A stretch of DNA of 64,000 bases, from NCBI GenBank assembly GCA_046482545.1, contig JAWOEX010000022.1, forward strand, positions 62,613 through 126,612, given 5' to 3'. Below, piece after piece: positions 3,113 through 31,142 of the stretch; the first letter of the stretch is position 1, and each line of letters starts with the position of its first letter. Source of the stretch: Candidatus Thorarchaeota archaeon. GTDB taxonomy: Archaea; Asgardarchaeota; Thorarchaeia; Thorarchaeales; Thorarchaeaceae. The notes beneath the pieces were generated by a model, which was not told the DNA's origin, did not search any database, and saw only the letters and a list, made by a program, of their open reading frames with translations. A program made the position numbers and the translations under genes.

Positions 3113-4627
3113 ATGACACAGAGTCCAAGCAGAGTATTCACCAGCATTTCGCCAGCGGAGTTCTTCTACCGAAATCGCCAGATGGCCGGTTTCGGGAATC
3201 CCACACAAGCTGTCTATTCCGCAGTGCGCGAGCTTGTTGAAAACAGTCTTGATTCTTGCGAAGATGCAGGTAGAAGACCCAAAATTAAGGTGGAAATAGA
3301 TGAATCCCCTTCGGGTGTCGTTCGTATCTCGGTTTCAGACAATGGTGAAGGCATCCCTGATGCACATGTTGCTAATTCATTTGGTCGTGTACTTTACGGC
3401 AGCAAGTATCTTTCCCGTCAAAGACGTGGTACTTTCGGACTTGGAGTGACAATGGCCGTACTCTATGGACAGATAACCACGGAGAATCCAGTTAAGATAT
3501 ACACCTGCACAGAGAGAGAGAACACAGGAAGGACCTACGAATTATTCATTGATGTTGAAAACAACAGGCCAATTATCCTATCTGTCGAGCATGTGAATCG
3601 AAACACAATCGGAACATCAGTTCGCATCACCATGAAAGGTTCCGTTTCCAGAGCCTATGATCGGATAGTTGATTATCTCAAGCTGACTTCTGTCTCTACC
3701 CCCCATTCCCAGATTAAGCTTGTACGTGGTGGGAAATTGGAGTTTTCCATTGGCCCATTGTGTGATACGCTACCTCCATCTCCCGTTCCAGTAAAACCGC
3801 ATCCACATGCTGCTGATATGGAACTGCTCCGAAGGTTGGTCAAGAAACGGTCTGAAACACCCCTTCGTCAGTTCCTTCAGAAATCCTTCCAGCAAGTTGG
3901 TCGTGTTACTTCTTCGAAAATAATCGACTTTCTTGCTATGAATCCACAGCGAGAAGTTGGCGCTCTGGATCGTTCAGAGATAAATAGGTTAAGTACGGTT
4001 CTCCAGAACTTTAAGGGGCTTGGTCGCCCAACTACTGAGTGTCTTAGCCCGATAGGGGAACATGCTTTCATGAATGCTGTATGTCAAACATATGACGCAG
4101 CTGATGTTGGTTATGCAACAAAAGGGCCATTCGAATGGAGTGGCCATCCATTCATTGTTGAGGGCGTAGTTGCTATTGGTGGAAATTTACAGAAGACCAA
4201 AACTCCCATACTACACCGTTTCACAAATCGAGTTCCTCTCCTTTATGACGCTAGTGAAGATGTAATGACCAAGGTTCTCAATGGGATCAACTGGTCCAGA
4301 TATGGTCTCACTACATCAAAAAGAGTGGGCTTGTTCATTCATTTCTGCTCAACACGGGTGCCCTACAAAGCTACTGGCAAACAGTCAGTGGCAGGTGAAG
4401 AGGATATAGAATCGCAACTTGCCTTGCTCTATAAAGAACTCGGTAGATACCTAAGACGCATGACGAAGGACAAGAGAAAACGGGCTAGAAGAATAAAGGA
4501 AGCAAAGAAGCATTCAAAATGGCTCACTCTGATTGCTGAACTTGGTACAGAACTATCTGGAGCAGATGAGGTTCCCCCAACTCGGCCTTTAGTCGAAGAT
4601 CTTTTCGAGGTGAATCTTGATGTCTAG
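3113..4627 (+). CDS. top6B: DNA topoisomerase VI subunit B
   Basis: SPAEFF, RELVENSLD, DNGEG, RGTFGLG GHKL motifs, RFTNRVPL. Confidence 0.95.
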   Translation: MTQSPSRVFTSISPAEFFYRNRQMAGFGNPTQAVYSAVRELVENSLDSCEDAGRRPKIKVEIDESPSGVVRISVSDNGEGIPDAHVANSFGRVLYGSKYLSRQRRGTFGLGVTMAVLYGQITTENPVKIYTCTERENTGRTYELFIDVENNRPIILSVEHVNRNTIGTSVRITMKGSVSRAYDRIVDYLKLTSVSTPHSQIKLVRGGKLEFSIGPLCDTLPPSPVPVKPHPHAADMELLRRLVKKRSETPLRQFLQKSFQQVGRVTSSKIIDFLAMNPQREVGALDRSEINRLSTVLQNFKGLGRPTTECLSPIGEHAFMNAVCQTYDAADVGYATKGPFEWSGHPFIVEGVVAIGGNLQKTKTPILHRFTNRVPLLYDASEDVMTKVLNGINWSRYGLTTSKRVGLFIHFCSTRVPYKATGKQSVAGEEDIESQLALLYKELGRYLRRMTKDKRKRARRIKEAKKHSKWLTLIAELGTELSGADEVPPTRPLVEDLFEVNLDV

Positions 4628-5672
4628 CTTCGATGATGCGCAAGATGCTCTGTATAATCTGGGTAAACAGATCGTGGATTCACTTAATGATGGCGACTTT
4701 CCTGCTTTGCAACTTCCCGACAGGACTACGAACAACATCCTCTTTGATGAGACAACAGGCCAATTTGTTCTTGGTGGCTCACACGTTACTAGGGACTCCA
4801 AGAATACCAAACACATCAAGAGTCTGTCTCAATTGATGTGGGTTGCTGCTTTTGCCAAGAAACTTCTAGGTGCACAAAGAACAAGTTCGCTAAGAGACCT
4901 TTACTATTCGAGTGACGGTGAGGACGTCAAATTCTCTAGTCAATCAGAATCGGATAGAATCGTTGCCGACTTGGAATCATTTACGGGGCTGGCTCGTGAG
5001 GATTTTGGTATCTTTCCGGAGGAACACTCATCGGTATATGGGCATGTAAAGATGGAATATACCGTTCCAGGCTACGAGGGGCGTGAAGTTGATCTCACCA
5101 TCAGCCCAGATGGTTTGCCCATAGGTCCCGCTCTCATGACTGCAGAACCATTACATACTGATGCAGATCTTGTTCTTGCGGTGGAATCCGGTGGTATGTT
5201 TTCCCGCCTCATTGAGACAAATGCATGGGAGAAATTCAATGCTGTTCTAGTGCAGCTCGGAGGTCAACCTCCCAGAGCCACCAGACGGCTGATGAAGAGG
5301 CTCCATGAATACCTCGATCTTCCACTGTACATATTCACTGACGGTGATCCATGGGGTCTCCATATAGCTAAGGTGATTATCTGTGGGAGTGCAAGCTCTG
5401 CCCACATCAGGGGTTTGACAATCCCAGAAGCTCACTGGATTGGTGTCACTGCTGCTGATATTGTAGACTATGAGTTGCCAACCGAACCAATGACCGATAC
5501 GGATATGAAACGCTTGGATGAGCTCAAGGGAGATATTCGCTACAAGGATCCAGAATGGCAAGCATATATCGATGACTTCAAGAAGATACGAAAGAAAGCG
5601 GAACAACAGGCTTTTAGTCGTCATGGCATGGATTATGTTGTGAATGTCTATCTTCCAAATAAGCTGGATTAG
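4617..5672 (+). CDS. top6A: DNA topoisomerase VI subunit A
   Basis: LRDLYY catalytic Tyr, TOPRIM VE and TDGDPWG, KAEQQA. Confidence 0.95.
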   Translation: MMSSFDDAQDALYNLGKQIVDSLNDGDFPALQLPDRTTNNILFDETTGQFVLGGSHVTRDSKNTKHIKSLSQLMWVAAFAKKLLGAQRTSSLRDLYYSSDGEDVKFSSQSESDRIVADLESFTGLAREDFGIFPEEHSSVYGHVKMEYTVPGYEGREVDLTISPDGLPIGPALMTAEPLHTDADLVLAVESGGMFSRLIETNAWEKFNAVLVQLGGQPPRATRRLMKRLHEYLDLPLYIFTDGDPWGLHIAKVIICGSASSAHIRGLTIPEAHWIGVTAADIVDYELPTEPMTDTDMKRLDELKGDIRYKDPEWQAYIDDFKKIRKKAEQQAFSRHGMDYVVNVYLPNKLD

Positions 5673-5683: not shown

Positions 5684-6709
5684 TTACACTCCAGATACAA
5701 GCAGGAGAATTACACCTCCGTAAGCGATTATTCCCTGCAACAAAATCAAAAATGTGACATTTTTCTTCTCACTAATACCGTCGAAGAAATGGGGGAGCAA
5801 CCAGTATATTGTATAAGGCCCAGCAACCGAAAGACTACCATCTTCTCTTGGTTCTGCAAATTTCTGGTATTCCATTCCCGTTCTTTTTACGTCCAATCTA
5901 TACACAAGATACAATACGAAATTCAGTAAGAAGGGCGTGTACAGGATAACTGCTAGTCGATTCATGTTCCCTATGATGAGCGACGCTGCCATGGCTGCTC
6001 CCATTGGCAGTCTTCCCACATCTCCCGGCAGAACCTTCGCTGGATACTTATTGAACGCAAAGAAGACGATAGAGGCCCCCAGAAGCGAAGCTGCGATAGT
6101 TGCTCCATCTATCTGGTGTTGACCGAGGCTTCTCTCCGTGAGGAGAGGTTTCAATACTATATACGCTAATATGGCTGATGAATTCACAATACTGAGGCCG
6201 CTCTCAAGGCCATTCATTCCGCCATACATATTCGTACTATCTATGATAAAGGTAGTCATCAATGGAACCACAACCAACGGATATGCCCACAGCAGATTAA
6301 CCTCTCCTATGAGGGGTATGGCCATCGTTGTAGTTCCCACATTTAGTGCCATGAGCGGGATAGAGGCAACTATTGGCACGATAATCTTTGTCCTATCTCT
6401 GAAATCCAAATTATCATCTAAAAGACCAACCATCCCTGCCATGAGTATTGAAACCAATGCACCAAGTATGGCGGGATTTACAGCATTGTCCAAAACAAAA
6501 GTGGAGAAACCGACTATAACCAACAAAGAGCTCACGATGGCAAATAGAAGAATAAACCCTCCGCCTTTTGGAACCTTATGCTTGCTCTTTTTATGGATAT
6601 CCTCGGCCAGACGTTTCCTATCCTCCAGCATTTCTATCGTATTTGGTAAGAACACTAGCATGATTACTATTGATATGACAAATGCCATGAGAATTATGAA
6701 CAAGTTCAT
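5684..6709 (-). CDS. UDP-GlcNAc:dolichyl-phosphate GlcNAc-1-P transferase (GPT/AglH/Alg7, MraY superfamily)
   Basis: Polytopic; DIHK, GLLDD, NMYGGMNGLE, FNKYPAKVLPGD motifs. Confidence 0.85.
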   Translation of the reverse strand: MNLFIILMAFVISIVIMLVFLPNTIEMLEDRKRLAEDIHKKSKHKVPKGGGFILLFAIVSSLLVIVGFSTFVLDNAVNPAILGALVSILMAGMVGLLDDNLDFRDRTKIIVPIVASIPLMALNVGTTTMAIPLIGEVNLLWAYPLVVVPLMTTFIIDSTNMYGGMNGLESGLSIVNSSAILAYIVLKPLLTERSLGQHQIDGATIAASLLGASIVFFAFNKYPAKVLPGDVGRLPMGAAMAASLIIGNMNRLAVILYTPFLLNFVLYLVYRLDVKRTGMEYQKFAEPREDGSLSVAGPYTIYWLLPHFFDGISEKKNVTFLILLQGIIAYGGVILLLVSGV

Positions 6710-6885
6710 ACCTCATGTCACGCTGCATTTGTAATACCTTTTAACACTTCTCTAGTAAATAAGATTGTACGGACATTGTACGTCCGAAATCTATTTTAGC
6801 GAACCAGAAGCTGAGCGAATTGTTCGTAGTGTATCCTGACTGTACACTGCACTTTCACGAACAAGCAAACCAAGGTGATTAAATC

Positions 6886-9837
6886 TTGAGCATGCTCCAT
6901 AGAAGGACGTTGACATTTGCACTACTGGTACTACTCTTTGCCAGCAGCATGGCAACAACCATGTCTTATCCCCACAACTGGGACAATTCCGCATTTGATA
7001 GTGAACCTATAGATTCTTCCTCGGTTGCGGATTCACCCCGGAACATCTCAATTCCGTATGTTGATGCCCACTATGGGTATGCAGATGGGATCATAGATCC
7101 AACAGAGTATAGCCAAAACTACACAGATCCTGCAACTGGAATCACAGTACATCTTGAGCATAATTCATCAGTTCTATATGTTGGTTTATCTGCTCCAACA
7201 ACAGGCTGGCTGGCTATCGCATGGAAAAACCAATCCTCCACATTCAGTACCGATGGTCTCAATGGCAGTGATTTGATTTATGGAGCTGCCACGGGAACTC
7301 CCCTATCTGGATATCCTCGTGTCACGCCTGATGATCCGGTCACCGTGAACTACGAACTCTATAGTCGAAACGGGAGTTTTATTGAAGAAGGCAAGGTGCC
7401 AGGGGAAAATTCGACAACCCCAATTGAGGATGAAAAGTTGCTGGAGGCCTACAAGGAGCAGATTATTGGAATGCGTATTGGTGAAGTACGTCATTTCGTG
7501 ATTCCTGCTGAAGAAGCCTACAACGATCCAAGTCACCCCATGTATGGTGAGGACTTGGAGTACATCATTACCCTAGAATCTATCGGGACTAATTCCTATA
7601 ACCCCGCAAGCGAGAGTTCCATTGCCTATAGCGATGAATATGGAATCAGTACCTTTCAGCATCTCCCTGATGCTAACCAAAGCAGGATATTGTCAGCAGA
7701 TGCTAGTCTAGTTGGCGGAACGACGCAGGTTGAATACTTCATTCAGATGAACAGCACCGATCCTTATGACATCCCTCTCTATAACACGACAGATGCAAGA
7801 TTTCCTTTTGTTCTTCTTCGTGGTTCGAATGATGATTTCGATACACTTCCGGTTCAACATACAGAATGGACAAAGCCATTCAATATGCAGATTACATCAA
7901 ATACACCTCCGGTTCTGGAGATAGTCAACCCCACACCTAATGCAGTACTTGGCTTGGTGACAACTCTGAAGCTTAACGCAACCGATGATGGGTTCGTAAG
8001 GCGTTGCTTCTACAGAGTTGATGACGGAGAATGGACAGAGTTCTACCATAATTTCAAGTCGGATCTCTGGGAATCTCAATCCGATTTATCGGACTATGAT
8101 AATGGCACGCATACTATCTGGTTCAATGCCACTGACGCCTCCAATGTAAGCAGTGTAGCATCTGTGGATGTAATCTTCTACTGGCCGCAGATACCTCTTC
8201 TTGGTATGCGGTTAAGCGTGAGACGGAGTTTTACCACCCGCGAACATCATTTGACAGAGATAGAAGACACCTATACTGTCAAGAACAATGGCTCGGCTCC
8301 CATCAGCTCGATAGAAGTTTTCTTACCAGCGACATGGGAGAGTTATTTCCTTTCAATTTCAGCATCAGACGCAAGCAAGCGCGAGATTGAAGTAATTAGA
8401 TTGCCTAATAGGGCTGACCTCATGCATTGGCGTTTGCATTTCTTTGAGCCTGTTTCTGTTGATGAGTCGTATAACTTCACATCTGTGATGCACTTCCATT
8501 CCCTTCACACACTTCTGTCCGAGGAGGGGGACATCTATGAAATCAGTTTCTTGAGATATCCAGTTGTCCCCTATGTTCTGAGAAGAGCGAGTTTAAGTGT
8601 GGAATTTAGAAGCGGCGACTCTCTAGACAGTGAGAATGTTGACGGTGCCAGTAATAACTTGGAACCAATGACTTCTGACATGTTCACTATTAATATTACA
8701 TCTCATACACCGTATCTTACAGCCGAAAGGAGAACCAGTGTAAAACTAAATTCTTGGGGGTGGTTGGTCTACTCTGAAGAAATCACCTTGCACAATATTG
8801 GAACCACGAGTGAAAACAAGGTAAGTTTCGAAGTCCCTGCCTATGCAGAAGGTATTCAGATTCACGATAAAGTTGGGATACTTGCAAAATCCCAGAGAAC
8901 CACAGACCACAAATTTAACGAGTCTGTTGAGTTTACAATCGATTTACAGGGTGATCGTTTCGGGGACGAGAAATTCAAATCCGGCTGGGACTATTCTTTC
9001 CAAATCAATTACTTCGTTCAACTAGCAAGTTATGTAAGTCCTACTGCTGGTGGAAGCCAGCTCGAACTTCCAATGGGAACTTTGACCAATATTCTTGTGT
9101 CTAAGCATACGGTAGACCTCGTTCTCTCAAATTCGGTTTCGGTAGTTGAAGCGTCAGGGAACTACAGATTCCTTTATGGCCCCTTTGATACAACCCTTCG
9201 CTATCGAATTTTCAACACAACACAGTATAATCCGCCTGAAGTAGGATTGGTCTATAACTTAGGTGTCGGGATAATATCAAGGCCTCTGGTTTTCGCTCTT
9301 ATCATCGGTTTAATCGCAACAATCTATGTCTCATACCGCAAAATAAGACCCAAAGGTGCTGCACCCATTGTTGGCAAGTCAACCGAAGAAGTTCGCAGAC
9401 AAATTGGAGCTCCACCTGAACTCCTTAGAAAGTTCGCAGATATGTATTCAAGAAAGACAGCTCTTGAAATGGATCTTGAGAAGCTCCAAGCTTCCAGAAG
9501 AAGAGGGAAAGTATCTAAGAAGGAATATATGATTCGGGAAAAGAATATCAAGTCTAAGCTTGAGGAAATAGATAATGAGCTACCCTCGGTTAAGGATGAG
9601 CTCATTTCTCATGGCTCAAAGTATCGTGATATGATTGCACAATTGGAGCTTCAGAATGAGAAGGTCGAAGGAGCCAAGGCTGGATTGCGGCAACTCCTTC
9701 TGAGGAAGAAAAAGCAGCGTATCAGCAGAGCTGCGTTCGAGAAGTCTCGGCAGGATTACTTGAAAACCATAAAAGAAGCAACGGGAGCCATCGACAGAAT
9801 TCTCCTATCAATCGAAGAAGAAGCAGGAGAACTGTAA
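6886..9837 (+). CDS. Ribophorin I (OST1)-like type I membrane protein with N-terminal DOMON-like, FKBP-type PPIase and Ig-like domains
   Basis: Signal peptide; DOMON-like GWLAIAW/GSDLIYG; FKBP-like VTVNY...IIGMRIGEVRHFVIPAEEAY; ribophorin-like RRTSVKLNSWGWLVYSEEITLHN and GWDYSFQINY; one TM then a cytoplasmic coiled coil. Confidence 0.7.
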   Translation: MSMLHRRTLTFALLVLLFASSMATTMSYPHNWDNSAFDSEPIDSSSVADSPRNISIPYVDAHYGYADGIIDPTEYSQNYTDPATGITVHLEHNSSVLYVGLSAPTTGWLAIAWKNQSSTFSTDGLNGSDLIYGAATGTPLSGYPRVTPDDPVTVNYELYSRNGSFIEEGKVPGENSTTPIEDEKLLEAYKEQIIGMRIGEVRHFVIPAEEAYNDPSHPMYGEDLEYIITLESIGTNSYNPASESSIAYSDEYGISTFQHLPDANQSRILSADASLVGGTTQVEYFIQMNSTDPYDIPLYNTTDARFPFVLLRGSNDDFDTLPVQHTEWTKPFNMQITSNTPPVLEIVNPTPNAVLGLVTTLKLNATDDGFVRRCFYRVDDGEWTEFYHNFKSDLWESQSDLSDYDNGTHTIWFNATDASNVSSVASVDVIFYWPQIPLLGMRLSVRRSFTTREHHLTEIEDTYTVKNNGSAPISSIEVFLPATWESYFLSISASDASKREIEVIRLPNRADLMHWRLHFFEPVSVDESYNFTSVMHFHSLHTLLSEEGDIYEISFLRYPVVPYVLRRASLSVEFRSGDSLDSENVDGASNNLEPMTSDMFTINITSHTPYLTAERRTSVKLNSWGWLVYSEEITLHNIGTTSENKVSFEVPAYAEGIQIHDKVGILAKSQRTTDHKFNESVEFTIDLQGDRFGDEKFKSGWDYSFQINYFVQLASYVSPTAGGSQLELPMGTLTNILVSKHTVDLVLSNSVSVVEASGNYRFLYGPFDTTLRYRIFNTTQYNPPEVGLVYNLGVGIISRPLVFALIIGLIATIYVSYRKIRPKGAAPIVGKSTEEVRRQIGAPPELLRKFADMYSRKTALEMDLEKLQASRRRGKVSKKEYMIREKNIKSKLEEIDNELPSVKDELISHGSKYRDMIAQLELQNEKVEGAKAGLRQLLLRKKKQRISRAAFEKSRQDYLKTIKEATGAIDRILLSIEEEAGEL

Positions 9838-9992: not shown

Positions 9993-10847
9993 ATGAACAA
10001 TGAAACATTGCTAGATCGTGATGCTATTTCAGCGGGTGACCTTGTGTCTTCGGGCACAAAGGCCTATGAGATGTATAATTATCTACAGACCTCGCCCAAA
10101 ATACAATCTTATCTACGTGCCGCCAATCGAATGGCGGTATCCCGTTTAGGATACACCGACCATGGACCAGTACATGCAGAAGTAGCAACATGGAACGCTC
10201 TTCGCGCCTTTGATATTCTTGACGATACTTTCAAGCCAAACATTGTTGCTGAGGATTTGGGCAATACAGACGATGCACGAATGATTGTTCTTGCATCCAC
10301 TTATCTACATGATATTGGTATGGTTGTCCACCGCCAAGAACATGCGATTTCCGCCATGCAGATTGCTAGCCCTATTTTGGAATCCAAGTTGGATGAGATG
10401 TATGGTAATCCTGCTAAGGCTGCCGATATTCTCAGTTTCATTCTGCACGGGATATATGCACATGATGATGACACTCAATGTCTCACTCTCGAGGCTGGTG
10501 TCACGAAAATTGGTGATGGCTGCGATATGACCAAGGGCAGAACCATAGTCCCTTTCCAGAAGGGAAAAGTGGATATACACAGTGTCAGTGCACTTGCCAT
10601 CACTGATGTTCTTCTTGACCGGGGAGAGGATAGGCCTTTACTGATTACGGTTCATATGGACAATCCCGCAGGGGTATTTCAAGTCCAAACTATTCTTGAG
10701 AAGAAATTAGGTACATCTGGCCTGCAGAACCAAGTTTCAATCGACGTAGTAGTGAATGGAGACCGATTGGTTCTCACAGAAGTGAAACGCCTTTTCAAAG
10801 TACAGATGAAAGAACCTACGGATCTAAGTGTCCATCAAAAAGATTAA
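9993..10847 (+). CDS. HD-superfamily phosphohydrolase
   Basis: YTDHGPVHA, YLHDIG, AHD, GDGCDMTKGR. Confidence 0.88.
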   Translation: MNNETLLDRDAISAGDLVSSGTKAYEMYNYLQTSPKIQSYLRAANRMAVSRLGYTDHGPVHAEVATWNALRAFDILDDTFKPNIVAEDLGNTDDARMIVLASTYLHDIGMVVHRQEHAISAMQIASPILESKLDEMYGNPAKAADILSFILHGIYAHDDDTQCLTLEAGVTKIGDGCDMTKGRTIVPFQKGKVDIHSVSALAITDVLLDRGEDRPLLITVHMDNPAGVFQVQTILEKKLGTSGLQNQVSIDVVVNGDRLVLTEVKRLFKVQMKEPTDLSVHQKD

Positions 10848-11516: not shown

Positions 11517-12914
11517 ATGAAACATAAGCATCCGTATCTTCCCATAACGGCTGAAAACCAGAAAGAGATGCTCGAGTCTATTGCCGAGAAAAACATTGAG
11601 GGTCTTTTTAGTGATATACCCAAGGAATTCCGTCTTCAAGACAAGCTAGACTTGCCTGATTCACATACTGAAGAAGAAGTAAGCCGGCGATTGAAGGAAC
11701 TTGCTTCTAAGAATATACAAGCGGAACCTAGAAGCAATTTTTTGGGCGGCGGTGTATACATGCATTACATTCCGGCAGCTGTTCCCGCCCTAGCAAAGCG
11801 CTCCGAGTTTGTCACTTCATACACAAGCTACCAATCGGAAATAAGCCAAGGCATGTTGCAAACGCTTTTTGAGTATCAGAGTATGCTCGCAGAGATTTTG
11901 CAGATTGATGTTGTAAACAGCAGTATGTACGATATGGCCAGCGCCTTGGGGGAGGCTGCAAGGATGACATCTCGGATAAAGAAGAAACGAGAGCGTTTTC
12001 TGGTTCCTCAATACATGAATCCTAATCACCTGAGGGTTCTTGAGACGTACGTTGAATCTACGGACATTGAAGTAGAAAAAATCCAACAAGATCCCGAGAG
12101 TGGTCTCTCAATCCTTGATGATCTGAAATCCAGAATTGATGATGATGTAGCTGGAGTGTACATAGAGATTCCATCGTATTTCGGAGTTATTGAGAATCAA
12201 GTAGACGAAATGAGCAACATAGTCCATGAAGCAGGCTCTTTGCTGGTTGCCGGAGTAGACATTCTATCAATGGGCCTCATTCGTCCTCCTGGAGATTATG
12301 ATGCCGACATCGTTATTGCAGAAGGCCAACCCTTGGGATCGCCTGCTTCATATGGCGGTCCATTGTTGGGCATTTTTGGCTGTAAAGGGAAAAGGGGGAT
12401 AATACGCCAGATGCCTGGCCGCCTAGTTGGCCTAACTCGAACAAAGGAACAGCCCTATGAACGAGGGTATGTACTCACACTAGTACCGAGGGAACAACAC
12501 ATCCGTCGAGAAAAAGCAACAAGCAATATATGTTCTAATCAGGCTCTCATGGCTGTGACTGCAGCAGTCTATCTTTCTCTTCTTACGTCCTCCGGTCTAG
12601 AACAAATGAGCGAGACTATTGCATACAATTCAAAGTACGCAGCTGAGAGACTGAATGAACTGGATGGGGTACTCGCTCCGGCTATTGGTTCTTCAATCTG
12701 GAAGGAATTTGTTGTACAATTTGAAGGAGTTACAGCCCAAGGGGTACATCAAGCGTTATTGAGGAAGGGTATTCACGGAGGGAGACAGCTTGCAGAGACT
12801 TTTCCAGAGCTAGGTGAAAACCTCTTGGTCTGCGTTACGGAACTCCATACAAAAGACGACATAGACGAGCTGGTAAGAACAGTTGAAGCGTATGTTGCAG
12901 AGGAGGCTGAGTAA
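11517..12914 (+). CDS. gcvPA: Glycine dehydrogenase (decarboxylating) subunit 1
   Basis: YTSYQSEISQG, NSSMYD, REQHIRREKATSNICSN. Confidence 0.95.
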   Translation: MKHKHPYLPITAENQKEMLESIAEKNIEGLFSDIPKEFRLQDKLDLPDSHTEEEVSRRLKELASKNIQAEPRSNFLGGGVYMHYIPAAVPALAKRSEFVTSYTSYQSEISQGMLQTLFEYQSMLAEILQIDVVNSSMYDMASALGEAARMTSRIKKKRERFLVPQYMNPNHLRVLETYVESTDIEVEKIQQDPESGLSILDDLKSRIDDDVAGVYIEIPSYFGVIENQVDEMSNIVHEAGSLLVAGVDILSMGLIRPPGDYDADIVIAEGQPLGSPASYGGPLLGIFGCKGKRGIIRQMPGRLVGLTRTKEQPYERGYVLTLVPREQHIRREKATSNICSNQALMAVTAAVYLSLLTSSGLEQMSETIAYNSKYAAERLNELDGVLAPAIGSSIWKEFVVQFEGVTAQGVHQALLRKGIHGGRQLAETFPELGENLLVCVTELHTKDDIDELVRTVEAYVAEEAE

Positions 12915-12916
12915 AA

Positions 12917-14479
12917 TTGACGGGTGACGAGAACCGCTACAGGCAAGCGAAATGGGATGTTCCACTTCTTTTCGAGCGATCCAATACCGGGCAAGTTGCC
13001 CATTGGTTCCCCGCTCCAGAAGACGAGATAGTTGAGATGATTGGTTCAGTTGATGGTCTTATTCCTAAGAACATGCGAAGAGATGAGAAACCGGAATTGC
13101 CTGAGATTTCGGAGCCCCAGATAGTGAGGCACTTCACCCGGTTATCACAGATGAATTACTCAGTAACTCAGGGCACATATCCCTTAGGCAGCTGTACTAT
13201 GAAGTACAATCCCGTTGTGAATGATCAATGCGCCTCGCTAGATGGATTTACCGATATTCATCCGCTTCAAAATCTTTCTACAACCCAAGGTGCTTTGGAA
13301 TTAATGTGGGAGCTCGAAAACTGGTTGGGTGAGCTCTCTGGCATGGACGCCGTCACACTACAGCCTGCTGCTGGAGCTCAAGGTGAGTTGACCGGCGTCC
13401 TGCTCATTCGAGAGTACCATCGTTGCGTAACCGAAGAGTGTGAACAGCGGTCTGAAATCCTTATCCCTGATTCTGCCCATGGAACAAATCCAGCTTCGGC
13501 TGCCATGGGCGGGTTTGAAGTAGTGGTACTGCCCTCAAGTGATGAAGGACTTGTAGATACAGATGCATTGCAGGATGCTGTTGGCCCCAAAACAGCGGGC
13601 TTGATGCTAACCAATCCCAATACAATAGGCATCTTTGAAAAGGACATCGAAGAAATTGCAGGCACTGTTCATGATGAAGGGGGATTGCTGTATTATGACG
13701 GTGCTAACCTGAACGCAATCATGGGAATGACCAGACCTGGCGATATGGGATTTGATATTGTCCATATGAACCTCCACAAGACCATGTCTACTCCTCATGG
13801 TGGGGGTGGACCGGGTGCAGGACCGGTTGGAGTAAAGGATAAGCTTGCAGAATTCTTGCCTGTTCCGCGTATCGTGAAAAAGTCAAATGATAGCTTTACT
13901 CTGGATTACGATTACCCTTCATCAATTGGTAAGGTTCACGGATTCTTTGGGAATTTCGGAGTGCTCGTACGATCATATGCATATATCTACGCCCTTGGAG
14001 CTGATGGTTTAAGGGAAGTATCCAAACTTGCTGTTCTAAATGCTAACTACTGTGCTAGGCATATTGAACAGATTAAGGGTTTTAAGCTACCGTACTCACA
14101 GAAAGCCCCTCGAAAACACGAATGTGTCATCTCTGCCCAACAAATGAAGGACGATACTGGCGTCACAGCTATGGATATTGCAAAGCGTCTTCTCGATTTT
14201 GGTATTCATGCCCCTACTGTGTATTTTCCTCAGATTGTTGACGAAGCTCTTATGATTGAGCCGACTGAAACCGAATCGAAAGAAGACCTTGACTCATTCA
14301 TAGCCGCGATGGAGACTATTTCACGAGAAGCGTATGAGACTCCTGAAAAAGTTAAGAATGCTCCGCACTCAACCGCGTTCAGAAGACTCGATGAATACAG
14401 AGCTGCTCATCCAAGAACCCTCACATTATCTTGGAGGATGTACAAGGAACGCATCTCCGAGGAAAATGACGCAAACTGA
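12917..14479 (+). CDS. gcvPB: Glycine dehydrogenase (decarboxylating) subunit 2
   Basis: PLGSCTMKYNP, SAHGTNPAS, NLHKT(PLP Lys)-PHGGGGPG. Confidence 0.95.
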   Translation: MTGDENRYRQAKWDVPLLFERSNTGQVAHWFPAPEDEIVEMIGSVDGLIPKNMRRDEKPELPEISEPQIVRHFTRLSQMNYSVTQGTYPLGSCTMKYNPVVNDQCASLDGFTDIHPLQNLSTTQGALELMWELENWLGELSGMDAVTLQPAAGAQGELTGVLLIREYHRCVTEECEQRSEILIPDSAHGTNPASAAMGGFEVVVLPSSDEGLVDTDALQDAVGPKTAGLMLTNPNTIGIFEKDIEEIAGTVHDEGGLLYYDGANLNAIMGMTRPGDMGFDIVHMNLHKTMSTPHGGGGPGAGPVGVKDKLAEFLPVPRIVKKSNDSFTLDYDYPSSIGKVHGFFGNFGVLVRSYAYIYALGADGLREVSKLAVLNANYCARHIEQIKGFKLPYSQKAPRKHECVISAQQMKDDTGVTAMDIAKRLLDFGIHAPTVYFPQIVDEALMIEPTETESKEDLDSFIAAMETISREAYETPEKVKNAPHSTAFRRLDEYRAAHPRTLTLSWRMYKERISEENDAN

Positions 14480-21612: not shown

Positions 21613-22419
21613 CTAGTTTCTCATCAATCCTCTGCAGAACGCGTCAATGTTGAGTCCAAGGTCCGCATGGTTGTACCCCCCTTCGAGAACTCCGTATCTC
21701 CGTCCATCACATCTTTTCTTGGCATAAGTACTAATGATTCTCCCGATTTCACGAAACGCTTCGGTTGAGAGATTCCCACCCCACCCCTCTTTGTACTGAT
21801 CGAAACCAGCTGACGCAACGATAACATCTACTGGTGGACTGTTGGCAAGCATATCTTCGATCTCGGATAGATACGCTTCGTCTCCTTTGCTGCTGGGATT
21901 GTGGATTACAAAGTTGTCATCAGCACCTAAAATATTGATAGTGCCGTCGCCAGTGTGCAAATCGAAGTCGAGAATAAATGCTGATTCTATGATTTTCTCC
22001 GCTCGCAAATCTAGCAGCGAAATTGCTACATTGTTGAAATAACAGAAACCCCAATACCCCCGTCTTGAAGCATGATGTCCAGGCGGCCTAACAAGAGCGA
22101 ATGAAGGGATTCCTTCAGCGGCAATATGTGCAGCTCTTATTGCTCCTCCAGCAGCTAAAGTCGCTAATCGATAAACTTCCGCAATAGAGGAACCATAATC
22201 CTCTTCTGAGACACTATTAACATGAGATTTAGCGTGTGCGCGTAAAATTTGCTCCTTCGTTGCAGGCTCAGGTTCTACAAATTCATATTCAGTGCTGCTC
22301 TTGAGAATTTCTATTGTTGTGTCTAGTCTTCCAGGTGCACCTGCTGGTGTCCTGTCATAAGATTTCTGCATGTCTGGGTGGTATACAATCTGCAATTCTT
22401 GTCTCATCCAATGGTGCAT
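21613..22419 (-). CDS. Histone deacetylase-family (Zn-dependent deacylase) protein
   Basis: RPPGHHA, GFCYFNN, DFDLHTGDG, SAGFD, LEGGY. Confidence 0.92.
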   Translation of the reverse strand: MHHWMRQELQIVYHPDMQKSYDRTPAGAPGRLDTTIEILKSSTEYEFVEPEPATKEQILRAHAKSHVNSVSEEDYGSSIAEVYRLATLAAGGAIRAAHIAAEGIPSFALVRPPGHHASRRGYWGFCYFNNVAISLLDLRAEKIIESAFILDFDLHTGDGTINILGADDNFVIHNPSSKGDEAYLSEIEDMLANSPPVDVIVASAGFDQYKEGWGGNLSTEAFREIGRIISTYAKKRCDGRRYGVLEGGYNHADLGLNIDAFCRGLMRN

Positions 22420-22504
22420 CTAAACGACTTGCTCAGAAGTATTCAGTATTCCATTCATCTACTTTGCCTTGTTTAAGAATTGCTTAGGAAAAACTTAGAG
22501 TGCG

Positions 22505-22530
22505 GGGCAGAAATCTTGCGGTTTCTGCCC
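22505..22530. terminator. Hairpin downstream of rpl12
   Basis: GGGCAGAAA-N8-TTTCTGCCC inverted repeat. Confidence 0.5.
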
Positions 22531-22567
22531 TTTGAAATCATGAAGGAGACGAACTGCCGGGGCTTTT

Positions 22568-22867
22568 CTATCCAAATAGGCTGCCCAATCCCTCGGTAGC
22601 TTCATCTTCCTCTTCTTCTTCCTCTTCTTCCTCTTCCTCAGCAGGCTCTTCAGCAGGTCCTTCTCCTGCGGTAGCTGCGGGTGCAGCTGGCATTGCTGCA
22701 CTCTTCAGGGCATCGTCAATATCGACACCATCGAGAGCGGCAATCAGGGCCTTAATCCTGCCCGGTTCAGCCTCTATATCAGCCGCCTTAAGGACAGCCT
22801 CCATATTATCTGATTCAATCTCTTTGCCTGCTTTATGAAGCAGTAGTGCTGCGTATACATATTCCAT
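22568..22867 (-). CDS. rpl12: Ribosomal stalk protein P1/L12
   Basis: [11 protein letters not shown], acidic hinge, GLGSLFG. Confidence 0.95.
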
Positions 22868-22894
22868 CTCTTGATACCTCTCTAAATTATTCTC

Positions 22895-23926
22895 TTATCC
22901 GAACATTGTTCCTAGGCCTTCGGTTGCCTCTACTTCATCATCCTCATCCTCTTCGTCATCGCTCCCATCAACCTCTGGTTTTGCCTGAGCTTGCTGTGCC
23001 GGAGATGCAGTTGGAACAGAACTGATCTCATCAATGAGTTCTGAGGGTATTGCGTCAGGATTCTCATCAGCAATCTGCTTTGCTAATGCTAGTGATTCTG
23101 CGTTGGCCTTTGCAAGAAAGTCACCCATCATGTCTGGCACCACAAAACCGGTGCTTAGAGCTAGGCTCTTGGCCTCTCTATCAGCCTTAGCTATGACCAT
23201 CGGAATAGTGTCAGCTGTGGGATAGCCTGCATTGATTGACAGATTGACTGCGTACTGGTGACCAATGATGACTTCCTTGAATAGGTCTTGAAGGTCAGTT
23301 TCAAGGTCGTTCTCGATCAGAAGTGCGCCATCGGCATACGCTGCAATAAGTTTCAACTGCAATTCCATAGGTTCTATGCCCAGTCTTCCGAGCATCTGTG
23401 CCATGGCATTGGATACGATTTTCCCTGCTTCAACCGCAACGGTTTCTTCGGTGATATGAATAACGCCACCTTTTACACGCGAGGGGATGTCGAGGGCTGC
23501 TAGCTCACTGATAAAGGGACCGGGTGCAACTCCAGTATTCATTGATGGGACAATGATGTCTTTTGGTGTAACCTGACCACCCTTTGCTGGTGCTGCAGCT
23601 TTATTTTCTCTCAAGAATTGACTGAGCTTAAAGGGATTCTGATCGCTAAAGACAAAAGCAACTGGTCCTTTTACATGATTCTCAAGTTTCTGAATACCCT
23701 CCTTGTCCACCTTTTCGATGGCCCTTTTCATAAGGGTATTTCGTGCCATTTTGATAACGGCTGAGCCTCTAAGGCTTTCTCGGATACCATGCATTTGCTT
23801 GGCACCAACGCCTTCAACATTGACAAGACCAACCATCTCGCTATCTTCAATCATGTCACTGAGTTTCTTTACCATGTCCTTCTTCCATTGTGGAACCTTG
23901 TGTTCATATACTGTCATGCATCTCAC
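22895..23926 (-). CDS. rplP0: Ribosomal protein uL10/P0
   Basis: PQWK, MARNTL, NPFKL, GLGTMFG. Confidence 0.95.
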   Translation of the reverse strand: MRCMTVYEHKVPQWKKDMVKKLSDMIEDSEMVGLVNVEGVGAKQMHGIRESLRGSAVIKMARNTLMKRAIEKVDKEGIQKLENHVKGPVAFVFSDQNPFKLSQFLRENKAAAPAKGGQVTPKDIIVPSMNTGVAPGPFISELAALDIPSRVKGGVIHITEETVAVEAGKIVSNAMAQMLGRLGIEPMELQLKLIAAYADGALLIENDLETDLQDLFKEVIIGHQYAVNLSINAGYPTADTIPMVIAKADREAKSLALSTGFVVPDMMGDFLAKANAESLALAKQIADENPDAIPSELIDEISSVPTASPAQQAQAKPEVDGSDDEEDEDDEVEATEGLGTMFG

Positions 23927-23929
23927 CCC

Positions 23930-24589
23930 TTATCGTGGTACTTCGATTGCTGGGCCCATGGTTGTCTTCACATAGACGCTTTCAACTCTCCGAGATAGCC
24001 CCTTATCCCGTACAAAGTCGATTACTGCATCAGTGTTTTCAGCTATCTGCTCGTCACTCATCCGTTCGTGACCGACTTTAACATGAAATGTTGGTGTGTT
24101 TCTCATTCTAATTCTGACAGTTCTTTGATACTGCTCAACTACACCACCAAGATTAGCTTCCGGTGGATAGGGTTTGGGCATTTTGCCTCTAGGACCTAGT
24201 AATTGTCCCAAATATCTACCAACAAGCGGCATCGCCTCGCGTGCAGCAATGAAGAAATCATATTCCTTCACTACTGATTTCTGCCTGCTCTTGTCTTCCC
24301 CTATTTCTGCTATTTCTTCTTTGGAAATGACTTTGGATACACCTGCCGCTTTTGCGTTTTCAGCAAATTCTCCGTCACCAAAGGCACATACCTTTGACGG
24401 GGGATACAATTCATTCGGAAGAATCAATTCTTCGTTAAAGCGGTTTTCCGGGTCAGACATATCAATTTCTTTTGTCCGGAAGTTAACAGCAGTATCAAAA
24501 CTCTGTTCGAAGTTTATTCCTCGTGCTATTCCTTTCTCTCTGGCCTCAGATACAGCTTCTTGTATATCATTAAATTCGTATGCCACCAT
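23930..24589 (-). CDS. rpl1: Ribosomal protein uL1
   Basis: LGPRGKMP, VKTTMGP. Confidence 0.95.
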   Translation of the reverse strand: MVAYEFNDIQEAVSEAREKGIARGINFEQSFDTAVNFRTKEIDMSDPENRFNEELILPNELYPPSKVCAFGDGEFAENAKAAGVSKVISKEEIAEIGEDKSRQKSVVKEYDFFIAAREAMPLVGRYLGQLLGPRGKMPKPYPPEANLGGVVEQYQRTVRIRMRNTPTFHVKVGHERMSDEQIAENTDAVIDFVRDKGLSRRVESVYVKTTMGPAIEVPR

Positions 24590-25096
24590 CTACTCCTCCC
24601 TAAATGGCTCATCAAGCTGCTCATCCCACTCACCACTGGCCACTTCTTCTTGGAAGACTTTGGGATCCTTCCCTTCAATTGTGACTCCCATTGACACACA
24701 GGTGCCCGCTACAGTTAGAACAGCAGATTTCATATCTAGTGCAGTCAAATCTTTGGCCTTACCCTTTGCAACTTCCTTCAGCTGCTCAAGGCTTATGTCT
24801 CCAACTTTTGTGAGGTTCGGTTCGCCAGAACCTTGTGGTGCACCTACTTGCTTGAGTATGAGTGCACTTGTTGGAGGTGTACCCACCTCGACTTCGAATT
24901 CCTTGGAAGATGGATCAACGATAATGGTGACAGGTACCTTTAGGCCTTTGTATGGTTCAGTAACCTCATTGATTTCTTGCACTACTTGGTATATATTAAC
25001 ACCAGTTGGACCTAAAGCGGGACCTATTGGAGGCCCACCAGACGCCTTACCGCCTTCCACCATGGCATCCACAGTTATCTTGTTCGCTTCACTCAT
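24590..25096 (-). CDS. rpl11: Ribosomal protein uL11
   Basis: GGKASGGPPIGPALGP, GTCVSMG; start placed at MSEANK. Confidence 0.95.
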   Translation of the reverse strand: MSEANKITVDAMVEGGKASGGPPIGPALGPTGVNIYQVVQEINEVTEPYKGLKVPVTIIVDPSSKEFEVEVGTPPTSALILKQVGAPQGSGEPNLTKVGDISLEQLKEVAKGKAKDLTALDMKSAVLTVAGTCVSMGVTIEGKDPKVFQEEVASGEWDEQLDEPFREE

Positions 25097-25302
25097 TTCA
25101 AACACAACTCCATATGCAGTTGTAGGTTCAGACAAATTTGTCTGAGAAATTGTTCGACCTGCCAATGAAAATCAGATTCACACTTGACAAGGTCTACTGC
25201 ATCAGTTGTCACTTTTCATCACCCCAGACATGACGTCAAAGCGTTCATGTCCGATTAAGGAGCTACAATGTGGTTGACTCGTAGTCAGGTTTTAAGCATT
25301 GT

Positions 25303-25613
25303 GGACTAGTATAACCCGCTTCTTACAGTTCAGCAAACTCAACCTGTTTGAATCTTCTATGTTCCACCCTGCCCCTGCCAGCCTCACCGCCCCTTTCGGC
25401 CCTTCAGTTGGCAGAGGTTTTGTCCATGTTTATCCCAATGGGTTCTTCGCACGGTCTAGGCTTTGTCTGCTTATCATCATCCCGGGTCAACACTCCCGGT
25501 GAGAGGAAATCCTTCCACAGTTCTTACCCCTGCGGGGTCATAATCATCTGACCCAGCTTTGTCACCGCCGCCGAGAAGGTTCATTTGGACATGGAGCTTC
25601 GCCGCACCAGTCC
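25303..25613 (-). ncRNA. Orphan copy of the tnpB 3'/omegaRNA-like region (non-autonomous element or trans-acting scaffold)
   Basis: Colinear with 61301-61600: 62/93 identities without gaps in the 5' block and 35/39 in the GGCGGTGA...GGGTGGAACA.AGAAG block; no adjacent tnpB. Confidence 0.7.
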
Positions 25614-25842
25614 GGAATCAATGACTTAGGATGACTTCTCCAATAGATGAAGAAAATATCATTTTGCTATGATGATTTCTTATTTGAGAAGATAGATGAC
25701 ACCAATCTTTCCCAGAATGAATTCAAATACTCAATCTTGATTATTCAAGGCTTTTCTTGGTTCAGAAAAATTGTAGGGCTTCAGGGAGATTTCACAAAGG
25801 TTTTACATCTTGACATGCTGATTTTTTAGGATTTTGTAAGAT

Positions 25843-26475
25843 TCAGCGCGCCCAGAATCCACCCTCTTCTTCCTCTTCCTCGGTTTCTTCTGGTTCTGCT
25901 TTTTCAACAAGCTTGGCGAAGTCTGCATGAACTCTTATCGGGATTGTATGTGGGCTATCAAGCAATTCTAGAATAAGTTCTCCTTTTGCTGATTCTACTC
26001 TCACTACCTTAGCCCGTTCCCCCTTGAACGCTCCAGAAATAATCTCAACAAGGTCCCCTACTGAAATTCCTTCTGCAGCAGGTGGGGGTACAAGGAACTT
26101 GTCAATTTCTTCCAATGTTACCTTTCCACCGACACGCCCTCGTACGTGGGGAATCCCCTGAATTGCCAATTCTACATCTCTGAACTCCATTGTTTCAAGG
26201 AAAATATAACCCCTCAGAGTGCCCGGAACTAGAACCGCTTTAACCCGTCCTTGTAGTTTATTCTCTGACACCAGCTTAGGAGTGCTTTCTCCTTCCGCCT
26301 GGTCGCATTCCTGTATATGCTCTCCTGCCTCTTTCTTTGAATCAAATTCCCTTTTGCAGAATGGGCATACCCAGATATCCTTTGCACTGGTTACGGCAGT
26401 AGTGATTAGATCCGCAACACTCTTCTCCTGCCCAATTGTAGTTCGTACTGCGTAGATATTGCCAGTGGACTGCAT
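25843..26475 (-). CDS. spt5: Transcription elongation factor Spt5 (NusG) with inserted C2HC zinc finger
   Basis: IYAVRTTIGQE, LRGYIFLE, KOW GDLVEIISGAFKGE; start at MQSTG after GGAGG. Confidence 0.93.
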   Translation of the reverse strand: MQSTGNIYAVRTTIGQEKSVADLITTAVTSAKDIWVCPFCKREFDSKKEAGEHIQECDQAEGESTPKLVSENKLQGRVKAVLVPGTLRGYIFLETMEFRDVELAIQGIPHVRGRVGGKVTLEEIDKFLVPPPAAEGISVGDLVEIISGAFKGERAKVVRVESAKGELILELLDSPHTIPIRVHADFAKLVEKAEPEETEEEEEEGGFWAR

Positions 26476-26519
26476 ATACAAAACCTCCAAGGTTGGTGGA
26501 TTAATACCTCTTAGTCGGA

Positions 26520-26696
26520 TTATTGCCAGTTTTGAGTTACGATTGCCATCAAGGTTTGGATTATGAAGGCTAAGAAACCTACGAGAACCATGGCTAGCAG
26601 ACTGATTCTCGCACTCAACCACATTTCGTCCTTAGATGGCTTCGTAGATAGCTTCAAGATTCGTCGCGCTTCACGAATGAAATCTGCTATACCCAT
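26520..26696 (-). CDS. secE: Protein translocase SecE/Sec61-gamma (58 aa, absent from ORF track)
   Basis: MGIADFIREARRILKLSTKPSKDE followed by a TM helix; canonical ftsZ-secE-spt5 position. Confidence 0.92.
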   Translation of the reverse strand: MGIADFIREARRILKLSTKPSKDEMWLSARISLLAMVLVGFLAFIIQTLMAIVTQNWQ

Positions 26697-31138: not shown

Positions 31139-31142
31139 ACAT

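Follow-up and report, generated by a model that had tools for sequence, protein, structure and literature searches.

A Thorarchaeial OST1/ribophorin I extended by a DOMON-like domain with an inserted FKBP and by an Ig-like domain

The locus and its product

The window, by which we mean the whole analysed stretch of 64,000 nucleotides from a contig of Candidatus Thorarchaeota archaeon, contains a pair of divergent, head-to-head genes. One of them (5684-6709, minus strand) codes for a polyprenyl-phosphate HexNAc-1-phosphate transferase of the MraY/WecA/ALG7 family (AglH-like; Glycos_transf_4, 90.8 bits); enzymes of this type catalyse the reaction with which the assembly of lipid-linked glycans begins. 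The other one (6886-9837, plus strand; 983 aa, coordinates including the stop codon) codes for OST1, or ribophorin I, with an N-terminal extension composed of a DOMON-like domain, an FKBP domain inserted into it and an Ig-like domain. The two genes are separated by an intergenic region of 176 bp (6710-6885), and their pairing is kept in relatives, including a lineage with 33% identity. Downstream of the OST1 gene lies a conserved gene whose product is cytoplasmic-looking and HD-like.

Translation of OST1 may start at TTG 6886 or at ATG 6892 (residue 3), the latter being the residue with which the corresponding ESM Atlas record begins. A Shine-Dalgarno-like motif, GGTGAT, precedes the open reading frame at 6874-6879. 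Contigs of 99-100% identity are present in metatranscriptome libraries of three studies, such contigs being no proof of transcription; three RNA-library runs of two studies contain contigs that start at 6848-6858, which hints weakly at where transcription begins.

The product is a type I membrane protein, all features of which are given here on the plus strand. Its signal peptide (aa 1 to ~27, 6886-6966), read off the sequence, consists of a basic n-region (HRR) and a hydrophobic run. The N-terminal half of the DOMON-like beta-sandwich (aa ~54-140, 7045-7305), the FKBP domain (aa 141-237, 7306-7596) and the C-terminal half of the sandwich (aa 238-338, 7597-7899) follow, the two halves being assigned by structure and alignment. 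The Ig-like domain (aa 342-411, 7909-8118) matches Pfam Big_7 (PF17957) with 28.3-30.6 bits, above the Pfam cut-off of 24.1. Next come the beta-sandwich domains of the extracytoplasmic region of ribophorin I (aa 441-792, 8206-9261), a single transmembrane (TM) helix (aa 795-820, 9268-9345) with basic residues behind it, as expected from the positive-inside rule, and a cytoplasmic four-helix bundle (aa 844-979, 9415-9822). The TM segment is the sole strongly hydrophobic 19-residue window of the whole protein and forms a helix in the AF2 model (model residues 366-391). The protein contains one cysteine. Its ectodomain carries 19 sequons, compared with 8.0 +/- 2.5 in shuffled sequences, and is rich in sequons, as surface glycoproteins are. 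The same general order of domains, including the Ig-like domain and the single TM helix, had been proposed in the first-pass annotation; it holds, and the sequence motifs quoted there were all found at their places.

Ribophorin I identity and the cytoplasmic tail

Several lines of evidence agree with the earlier assignment of the C-terminal half to ribophorin I. Pfam Ribophorin_I (PF04597; cut-off 25) matches the whole protein with 29.2 bits and aa 430-800 alone with 34.1 bits, the latter over profile positions 15-366 of 437. A phmmer search with aa 430-983 in a library of 50%-identity representatives gave 322 matches, mostly proteins of 550-620 aa aligned end to end, and Ribophorin_I was present in 42 of the 58 that were scanned. 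The family profile built from these matches recognizes human RPN1 (E 1.7e-57, residues 10-604 of 607) and yeast Ost1 (E 1.1e-28). The AF2 model of the ribophorin region has pLDDT of 93.5; the eight PDB chains ranked highest by Foldseek belong without exception to yeast Ost1 and human RPN1 (TM by target 0.53-0.71; E 7e-30 to 4e-18). A profile of the C-terminal half made from Thorarchaeial sequences only reaches 8WHN, and not human RPN1, in the PDB. The connection with RPN1 is therefore made through Asgard sequences that lie between the two, together with the Pfam match and the fold.

The genome, which is 98.9% complete, has no Ribophorin_I match other than this open reading frame, and it also contains one AglB/STT3 (925 aa) and one OST3/6-like open reading frame. 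The protein is therefore the OST1 of its genome, present in single copy alongside STT3/AglB. Its relatives are deposited at NCBI as 'FKBP-type peptidyl-prolyl cis-trans isomerase', 'Ig-like domain-containing protein' or 'hypothetical protein', names that mask their being the Thorarchaeial OST1.

The tail, previously described as a coiled coil, is indeed helical; it is not a generic coiled coil, however, but the four-helix bundle of OST1. The AF2 model shows four helices of ~30 residues each, and aa 841-973 match 8WHN, the crystallised tail of OST1 from MK-D1, with E 2.9e-9 as a single sequence and E 6.7e-11 when the Thorarchaeial profile is used. No part of the protein is better conserved than this bundle. 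In both MK-D1, where pull-downs were used, and human, the cytoplasmic four-helix bundle of OST1 binds ribosomes (PMC11417166). That the tail is a conserved bundle of this ribosome-binding type strengthens the placement of the protein at the translocon.

The N-terminal extension and its distribution

Assignment of the host domain is less direct. Searched at E<=10, neither the protein nor its halves are recognized by Pfam DOMON (PF03351), and the N-terminal half of one homologue gave just 12.5 bits (E 0.17); the domain is therefore called DOMON-like by fold and superfamily, not as a member of PF03351. With this restriction the original naming of the domain stands. The AF2 model of aa 45-345 (pLDDT 92.5, pTM 0.88) was aligned by VIA-align with gamma subunits of ethylbenzene dehydrogenase (Z 16.2) and Nxr (Z 15.6), the DOMON domain of dopamine beta-hydroxylase (13.5), CBM9 (12.7) and the cytochrome domain of CDH (12.3), and all these alignments extend over model residues ~10-295, bridging the FKBP insert. 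In the ESM Atlas the domain falls to a DOMON (PF03351) cluster, with 163 aa aligned at rmsd 1.8. A six-frame genome search linked aa ~52-133 to other Asgard proteins with E 1e-8 to 7e-11; these score 40-104 bits on PF03351 and their alignment with the Thorarchaeial domain is colinear. The motifs DGIIDPxEY and GW...W are invariant in the N-terminal half.

In four of the five Asgard DOMON domains a methionine occupies the column which we take, from CDH and AIR12, to hold the axial ligand of heme b. Across the 117 Thorarchaeial sequences this column contains Leu (104), Ile (11), Val (1) or Phe (1). The position corresponds to Leu at aa 125 here, and aa 45-145 are devoid of methionine altogether. 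Two histidines of the domain are mostly conserved, H259 (110/117) and H325 (98/117).

The insert was claimed to be an FKBP prolyl isomerase domain at approximately 7325-7585 (aa 147-233), and its fold is confirmed. Pfam FKBP_C (PF00254) matches aa 146-230 with 33.2 bits (cut-off 21.1), and the profile of the family matches FKBP2 with E 1.3e-7. FKBP matches of Foldseek and VIA-align fall on aa 141-237 only (model residues 97-193; Z 10-12, rmsd 2.0-2.3), and comparison with the Atlas gave TM of 0.8. According to the model, the FKBP sits in a hairpin of the DOMON-like sandwich, and the pTM of 0.88 for aa 45-345 suggests that it is packed on it in a fixed fashion. No other extracytoplasmic FKBP was found in the genome, the second FKBP_C match being a protein of 257 aa lacking a signal peptide.

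Residues of the FKBP pocket were mapped through an ungapped HMM alignment to wheat FKBP73 and are given in what we take to be the numbering of FKBP12. The aromatic pocket is well conserved among the 117 members: Y26 is present in 117, Y82 in 116, W59 is replaced by Tyr in 115, F99 is Tyr or Phe in 117 and I56 is Leu in 116, while the position of F36 is aliphatic. At the equivalent of D37, however, just two sequences have Asp, whereas 87 have Gln and 28 have Glu; F46 corresponds to Ser and R42 to Pro, which makes the catalytic competence of the domain uncertain.

OST1 as such is nearly universal in the phylum (263/268 genomes), with a length of 560-660 aa everywhere except in the order to which the window belongs. 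In that order the extension of ~400 aa was found in 82 of 86 genomes. The family of the window contributes 81 of these (from 85 genomes) and the sister family one (its only genome). The extension was not found in 314 other genomes of the phylum, the OST1 frames of which measure 560-660 aa. Such a survey of Asgard architectures had been suggested in the first-pass annotation, together with the view that the fusion is a proto-ER quality-control module; the latter does not agree with an extension confined to one order. Rather, this restriction points to a lineage-specific accretion and not to an ancestral feature of Asgard archaea or eukaryotes. Two genomes also contain paralogues in which the DOMON-FKBP module, free of the ribophorin part, is combined with PKD-like domains and held by a simple TM anchor, so the module can work away from OST1. 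As had been supposed, the arrangement of DOMON, FKBP, Ig and ribophorin I appears to be new, since no description of it was found in the literature.

Possible role and comparison with known systems

We propose that the protein is the OST1 of a Thorarchaeial OST/Sec translocon based on AglB (STT3) and that it tethers an extracytoplasmic FKBP acting as holdase and/or isomerase, a reading to which we assign a probability of about one half. By homology to the complexes of MK-D1 and eukaryotes, OST1 would associate with AglB/Sec and with the ribosome. The C-terminal bundle would dock the translating ribosome on the cytoplasmic side, and the TM helix and ribophorin beta-sandwiches would be placed beside AglB and SecYEG. 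From the N-terminus of the ribophorin part, the Ig-like domain would serve as a spacer leading to the rigid DOMON-like pedestal, which has lost its heme ligand and would hold the FKBP in its hairpin. Because the whole ectodomain is extracellular and shares its side of the membrane with the catalytic site of AglB, the FKBP could be held close to the point at which unfolded polypeptides emerge from the channel. Its most likely role at this point would be that of a holdase and/or a prolyl isomerase for nascent secreted and glycosylated proteins. Coupling of glycosylation to prolyl isomerisation, as the first-pass annotation had it, is a plausible hypothesis.

Alternatively, the FKBP may be a non-catalytic adaptor at the OST/translocon that binds an extracytoplasmic factor or client, with the DOMON-like domain as its structural pedestal. 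The changes at D37, F46 and R42 fit this possibility, and the conserved pocket tyrosines suit ligand binding as well as catalysis; many active FKBPs, however, tolerate changes at these very positions. The pocket of human FKBP11, its nominal catalytic site, is buried by CCDC134; FKBP11 has been read as a ribosome-binding adaptor, and the authors argue against the nascent chain being isomerised by it (PMC12804085). No candidate partner of this sort was identified for the Thorarchaeial protein; the conserved downstream gene is of cytoplasmic appearance. We regard an adaptor as possible but doubtful.

It is also conceivable, if improbable, that the function resides in the DOMON-like domain as a CBM9-like glycan-binding module, which would hold lipid-linked oligosaccharide or freshly glycosylated products near AglB, the FKBP being secondary. 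Loss of the heme methionine in 117 of 117 sequences makes a non-heme ligand likely under this explanation, with which the match to CBM9, the invariant DGIIDPxEY segment and the AglH-like partner gene of glycan assembly also agree. The best folds and the nearest sequences, on the other hand, are heme-type DOMON domains found beside 4Fe-4S genes and not carbohydrate binders.

Quite improbable is the explanation that the protein is no OST subunit in this lineage and that its ribophorin sandwiches form just the stalk of a cell-surface DOMON-FKBP protein engaged, for example, in surface maturation or adhesion. The paralogues on a plain TM anchor and the high number of sequons could be taken for it, but nearly all genomes of the phylum have OST1 and this one, 98.9% complete, has no other, the ribosome-binding-type bundle is the most conserved region of the protein and the pairing with the AglH-like gene has been conserved. 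A role of the DOMON-like domain as a b-type cytochrome moving electrons at the translocon, for instance in oxidative folding with the thioredoxin-like OST3/6, is suggested by the heme-b subunits among the top folds, by the nearest Asgard relatives (Pfam DOMON with weak CDH-cytochrome matches, beside 4Fe-4S genes) and by H259 and H325, but the replaced methionine, the lack of any other in aa 45-145 and the single cysteine make it most improbable.

Returning to the tethered FKBP with holdase and/or isomerase activity, the gene may tentatively be regarded as a 'Rosetta-stone' fusion, in which an order-wide FKBP is hard-wired to a ribosome-docked OST subunit and translocation, N-glycosylation and FKBP-assisted folding are coupled outside the cell; we consider this broader proposal rather doubtful. 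Were it true, a membrane-tethered FKBP at the OST would be a recurrent solution, compare FKBP11 and OST-A, or possibly an ancient Asgard one, as stand-alone, membrane-anchored exported FKBPs of other Asgard lineages share a motif with the insert. Asgard OST1/ribophorin I, a non-catalytic helper subunit of the N-glycosylation and translocation apparatus that Asgard archaea have in common with eukaryotes, is a eukaryotic signature protein cited for archaeal inheritance of the ER translocon. Being confined to one order, the fusion has no direct bearing on eukaryogenesis; a foldase-type domain on OST1 nevertheless leads to the hypothesis that OST1 serves to place auxiliary folding factors where chains exit the channel.

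The closest known system is OST1 of 'Ca. Prometheoarchaeum syntrophicum' MK-D1 (WP_147663064.1; tail PDB 8WHN; PMC11417166), with the same ectodomain, one TM helix and a four-helix tail. In ordinary Asgard OST1 of 560-660 aa the ribophorin part directly follows the signal peptide, whereas the Thorarchaeial protein has ~400 additional N-terminal residues. Human RPN1 (PDB 6S7O/8B6L) and yeast Ost1 (6EZN/6C26) share the fold of the ectodomain and the TM helix, and RPN1 also the cytosolic bundle, but identity is 12-14% only and both are without DOMON, FKBP and Ig domains.

The DOMON-like domain shares its beta-sandwich over ~170 residues with the heme-b subunits of ethylbenzene dehydrogenase (gamma, 2IVF_C) and Nxr (gamma, 7B04_C), with Z of 15.6-16.2, and is colinear with TM-anchored DOMON proteins of other Asgard archaea. 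Unlike in these, the Thorarchaeial sandwich is interrupted by the FKBP, its methionine is replaced and no Fe-S gene adjoins. SlyD, like archaeal FKBPs that carry an IF (insert-in-flap) chaperone domain, also joins an FKBP to a second domain by insertion; such proteins, for example 3CGM and 3PRB, are structural matches of the insert (Z 10-12). In the cytoplasmic SlyD the chaperone domain lies inside the FKBP; the Thorarchaeial case is reversed, the FKBP being the guest in another domain.

Outside Thorarchaeial sequences, the nearest matches of the insert (30-39% identity) are membrane-anchored extracytoplasmic FKBPs of other Asgard archaea, which share with it the motif AYTxPxHxLYG and the outside-facing topology. 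They are, however, stand-alone proteins of 190-215 aa with an anchor of their own, neither placed inside a DOMON domain nor linked to OST1. In human cells, OST-A on the secretory translocon is joined by FKBP11 (PMC12804085), a lumenal FKBP that is anchored in the membrane and has a cytosolic helix that binds ribosomes; structures of FKBP11 resemble the insert (9n9j_A and 9ygy_A; Foldseek E 7.9e-5, Z 10.6). FKBP11 (PDB 9N9J/9YGY) presents its FKBP at the OST/translocon on the lumenal side by means of a TM segment and a cytosolic ribosome-binding element, and the Thorarchaeial protein would do likewise on the extracytoplasmic side. FKBP11 is, in contrast, a separate, dynamically recruited protein, unfused to RPN1 and with its pocket covered by CCDC134, whereas the Thorarchaeial FKBP is fused and restricted to one lineage. 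Common descent of the association is unsupported; FKBP11 at OST-A is best seen as a parallel, and the Thorarchaeial OST1-FKBP would be a covalent analogue of the FKBP11-OST-A arrangement recently described in human cells.

The C-terminal half is a complete OST1

The reading frame at window 6886-9837 (+) comprises 983 codons and has no interruption in the window sequence. Codon 1 is TTG, with a Shine-Dalgarno-like GGTGAT ending 6 nt 5' of it, and codon 3 is ATG, where a public record begins. From its signal-peptide-like N-terminus and the single strongly hydrophobic stretch (aa ~795-820), behind which come basic residues and a tail of 165 aa, the product is predicted to be a type I membrane protein with ~770 extracellular residues. 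Its ectodomain (window 6886-9270) has 19 N-X-S/T sequons, where composition-preserving shuffles give 8.0 +/- 2.5; none occur in the tail, and homologues possess 9-24; this OST subunit is probably heavily N-glycosylated itself. The whole protein contains one cysteine (aa 374).

When aa 430-800 were scanned alone, the Pfam model Ribophorin_I matched with 34.1 bits (cut-off 25; profile positions 15-366 of 437). A phmmer search with aa 430-983 against a library of 50%-identity representatives returned 322 hits, the majority of them proteins of 550-620 aa that align end to end, beginning at their own residue 30-70; Ribophorin_I was present in 42 of 58 such homologues scanned. The AlphaFold2 (AF2) model of aa 430-983 has pLDDT 93.5, and its best eight Foldseek matches in the PDB are all chains of RPN1 or Ost1. 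A profile of the broader Asgard family (A1) aligned with residues 10-604 of the 607 of human RPN1 (E 1.7e-57), as well as with the archaeal OST1 domain structure 8WHN (E 1.5e-50) and yeast Ost1 (E 1.1e-28). The RPN1 match depends on this broader profile: a profile of the C-terminal half built only from sequences of the window's order (Thor sequences) did not reach human RPN1 in the PDB, 8WHN being its sole match, and the sequence bridge to eukaryotes therefore passes via other Asgard OST1s. The C-terminal half, called ribophorin I in the first-pass annotation, is thus confirmed as a complete OST1.

The tail had been described as a coiled coil. Its helical nature holds, as the AF2 model contains four helices of ~30 residues each; a generic coiled coil gives way to a bundle of the 8WHN type, which aa 841-973 match with E 2.9e-9. 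8WHN shows the cytoplasmic OST1 domain of 'Ca. Prometheoarchaeum syntrophicum' MK-D1; this four-helix bundle shares its topology with the tail of human RPN1 and pulled down ribosomes (PMC11417166).

This frame is the sole Ribophorin_I match in its own genome, which is 98.9% complete. The same genome encodes one AglB/STT3 of 925 aa (G000:C28:200727-201956, L002) and, ~3.7 kb upstream of it, an OST3/6-like frame of 165 aa (G000:C28:196709-197026, L007; PF04756, 33.6 bits). Contigs C27 and C26 hold two weaker matches to OST3_OST6. NCBIfam has no model for the protein studied here.

A DOMON-like domain interrupted by an FKBP

The model of aa 45-345 is confident (pLDDT 92.5, pTM 0.88). Its Foldseek list is filled by FKBPs, and the host fold becomes visible only through VIA-align, which over model residues ~10-295 retrieved the gamma subunits of ethylbenzene dehydrogenase (Z 16.2) and Nxr (15.6), the DOMON domain of dopamine beta-hydroxylase (13.5), CBM9 (12.7) and the CDH cytochrome domain (12.3). 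In the ESM Atlas, a PF03351 DOMON cluster aligned over 163 residues with rmsd 1.8. The Pfam DOMON model did not match the two host halves of this protein (one homologue reached 12.5 bits, E 0.17), and a profile of the N-terminal module found FKBPs only among PDB sequences, with DOMON not detected by sequence. The DOMON call is therefore based on the fold and on the relationship to Asgard DOMON proteins: a phylum-wide search connected aa ~52-133 with TM-anchored proteins of other Asgard archaea (L013-L015) that score 40-104 bits on PF03351 and adjoin 4Fe-4S dicluster genes. The multiple alignment with them is colinear, and it places the FKBP with its short flanks in one DOMON hairpin, C-terminal to the IIxGY strand. 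The split DOMON-like domain of the earlier annotation accordingly stands as a fold, while the Pfam model does not recognise it. The Ig domain that follows matches Big_7 at aa 342-411 (28.3-30.6 bits, cut-off 24.1).

The DOMON proteins at L013:934-2661 (+), L014:940-2127 (+) and L015:862-2676 (-) have one or two uninterrupted Pfam DOMON domains and retain the conserved methionine. A DmsB/NrfC-like 4Fe-4S dicluster gene directly adjoins the DOMON gene in L014 and L015, whose products look like extracytoplasmic heme-b subunits of the EBDH/Nxr-gamma type. The methionine, at the position of the heme ligand of CDH and AIR12, is kept in four of five Asgard DOMON domains and replaced by Leu, Ile, Val or Phe in 117/117 Thor sequences. 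Canonical Met-ligated heme binding by the Thor module is therefore unlikely.

The insert is an FKBP, as first proposed: FKBP_C matches aa 146-230 with 33.2 bits (cut-off 21.1), VIA-align limited to model residues 97-193 (aa 141-237) returned FKBPs with Z 10-12, and the Foldseek matches of the N-terminal module, FKBPs only, include human FKBP11 from the translocon structure 9N9J. Pocket residues were mapped in 117 sequences via an ungapped HMM alignment to wheat FKBP73. In FKBP12 numbering, Y26 is invariant in all 117, Tyr replaces W59 in 115, 116 sequences retain Y82, I56 is Leu in 116/117 and F99 is Tyr or Phe in 117/117; D37 is replaced by Gln (87) or Glu (28) and is Asp in 2, F46 is Ser, and R42 is Pro. 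The pocket is under purifying selection, a pattern that does not tell whether it is catalytic. The genome has one further FKBP_C match, in a protein of 257 aa whose N-terminus is acidic and lacks a signal peptide, so that the OST1-borne domain is the only extracytoplasmic FKBP detected there.

Outside the Thor sequences, the insert is matched most closely by Asgard FKBPs 190-215 aa long, which have signal or anchor sequences of their own and share with the insert an AYTxPxHxLYG motif. Two of them, L016:394-972 (+) and L017:64-705 (+), are stand-alone, outward-facing, membrane-anchored FKBPs. In L017, a signal peptide precedes the FKBP, and a TM helix leads to a Cys-rich, zinc-ribbon-like tail in the cytoplasm, an arrangement that recalls human FKBP11.

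Lineage restriction and genomic setting

Closely related full-length homologues are numerous (47-96% identity, 930-1010 aa), and those named at NCBI are nearly all labelled Thorarchaeota; the names used are FKBP-type isomerase, Ig-like domain-containing protein or hypothetical protein, and none mentions ribophorin. Among 400 sampled genomes of the phylum, the whole module was found in 81 of the 85 that belong to the window's family (16 genera) and in the one genome representing the sister family within this order (37% identity, frame of 1034 aa). Outside this order the sample contained no whole module, only separate FKBPs or uninterrupted DOMON proteins. Of 268 genomes with a completeness of 85% or more, 263 yielded OST1 itself, with frames of 560-660 aa outside the order versus 981-1034 aa inside. 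On this distribution, the extension is an accretion specific to the order, added onto a resident OST1. The fusion had further been presented as a "proto-ER" module; its absence from all other Asgard lineages sampled leaves that framing unsupported. No paper on a ribophorin-FKBP or DOMON-FKBP fusion in archaea was found in the literature library searched, which covers few subscription journals. The protein belongs to the OST1/ribophorin I family and carries added domains that had not been described for it before. In another genome of the same genus, the orthologue (G388:C47:57157-59985 (-)) has an open frame of 1233 aa where ~985-1000 would be usual; the frame may be extended in phase at its 5' side or include a further domain.

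In a search for stand-alone N-terminal modules of 165-527 aa, every hit was one of these Thor proteins cut off by a contig end. The genome survey revealed a second, shorter paralogue in two Thor genomes (G318 and G337), at L010:1025-2818 (+) (598 aa) and L011:1130-2887 (+) (586 aa). Its signal peptide is followed by DOMON(FKBP), Ig and another beta domain (which in L010, though not in L011, has a PKD-like Pfam match below threshold), then by a Thr-rich linker and, at the C-terminus, a plain TM anchor; it lacks both the ribophorin part and the helical tail. This architecture suggests that the DOMON(FKBP)-Ig module is a self-contained extracytoplasmic unit, able to function on a simple anchor.

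The OST1 gene lies head-to-head, across a 176 bp gap, with a PF00953 transferase gene (MraY/WecA/ALG7 family, AglH-like), an arrangement shared by a relative with 49% identity and a lineage with 33% identity. The gap contains a short inverted repeat, CGGAC...GTCCG (6768-6790), possibly a regulator site, and after it a T/A-rich stretch, TCTATTTTAG (6791-6800), possibly a TATA-like element; both genes may share them. Metatranscriptome libraries from three salt-lake studies contain contigs of 99-100% identity that cover most of the frame. Contig starts at 6848-6858, in three runs from two studies, give a weak hint of a transcription start, library contigs being no proof of transcription; nothing is concluded from the part of the intergenic region that lacks coverage or from gaps between contigs (e.g. 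8393-8686 in X3), and read depth was not used for ranking genes.

Elsewhere in the window, topoisomerase VI subunits B and A lie upstream (3113-5672 (+)). Directly downstream is a 284-aa protein with a weak HD-domain match (9993-10847 (+)), whose position is kept in the distant relatives L003, L005 and L012, and further on a Trm112-like gene and two glycine-cleavage P-protein subunits (11517-14479 (+)); L005 conserves the whole gene order. Both GC skew and AT skew are strongly negative over a long stretch (22000-34000), as would fit one or several very long genes on the minus strand.

A proposed role and its parallel in FKBP11

The analysis shows the domain identities and the topology, the single copy in the genome, the restriction to one lineage and the conserved pocket; the mechanism that follows is proposed. 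By analogy with MK-D1 and eukaryotes, the cytoplasmic tail would dock the ribosome, and the TM helix and ectodomain would be placed with AglB and SecYEG. The N-terminal extension would then hold the FKBP at the channel/OST exit on a rigid, heme-less DOMON pedestal, where it would serve as holdase and/or isomerase for emerging chains.

Human FKBP11 presents a close functional parallel of the OST1-borne FKBP. It combines a lumenal FKBP domain with a TM segment and a cytosolic helix that binds the ribosome; cryo-EM located it at OST-A (PMC12804085). Its pocket is buried by CCDC134, and an adaptor role is favoured by the authors (PMC12804085); that the Thor FKBP is non-catalytic and holds a partner is hence a plausible, if less likely, alternative to the holdase/isomerase reading.
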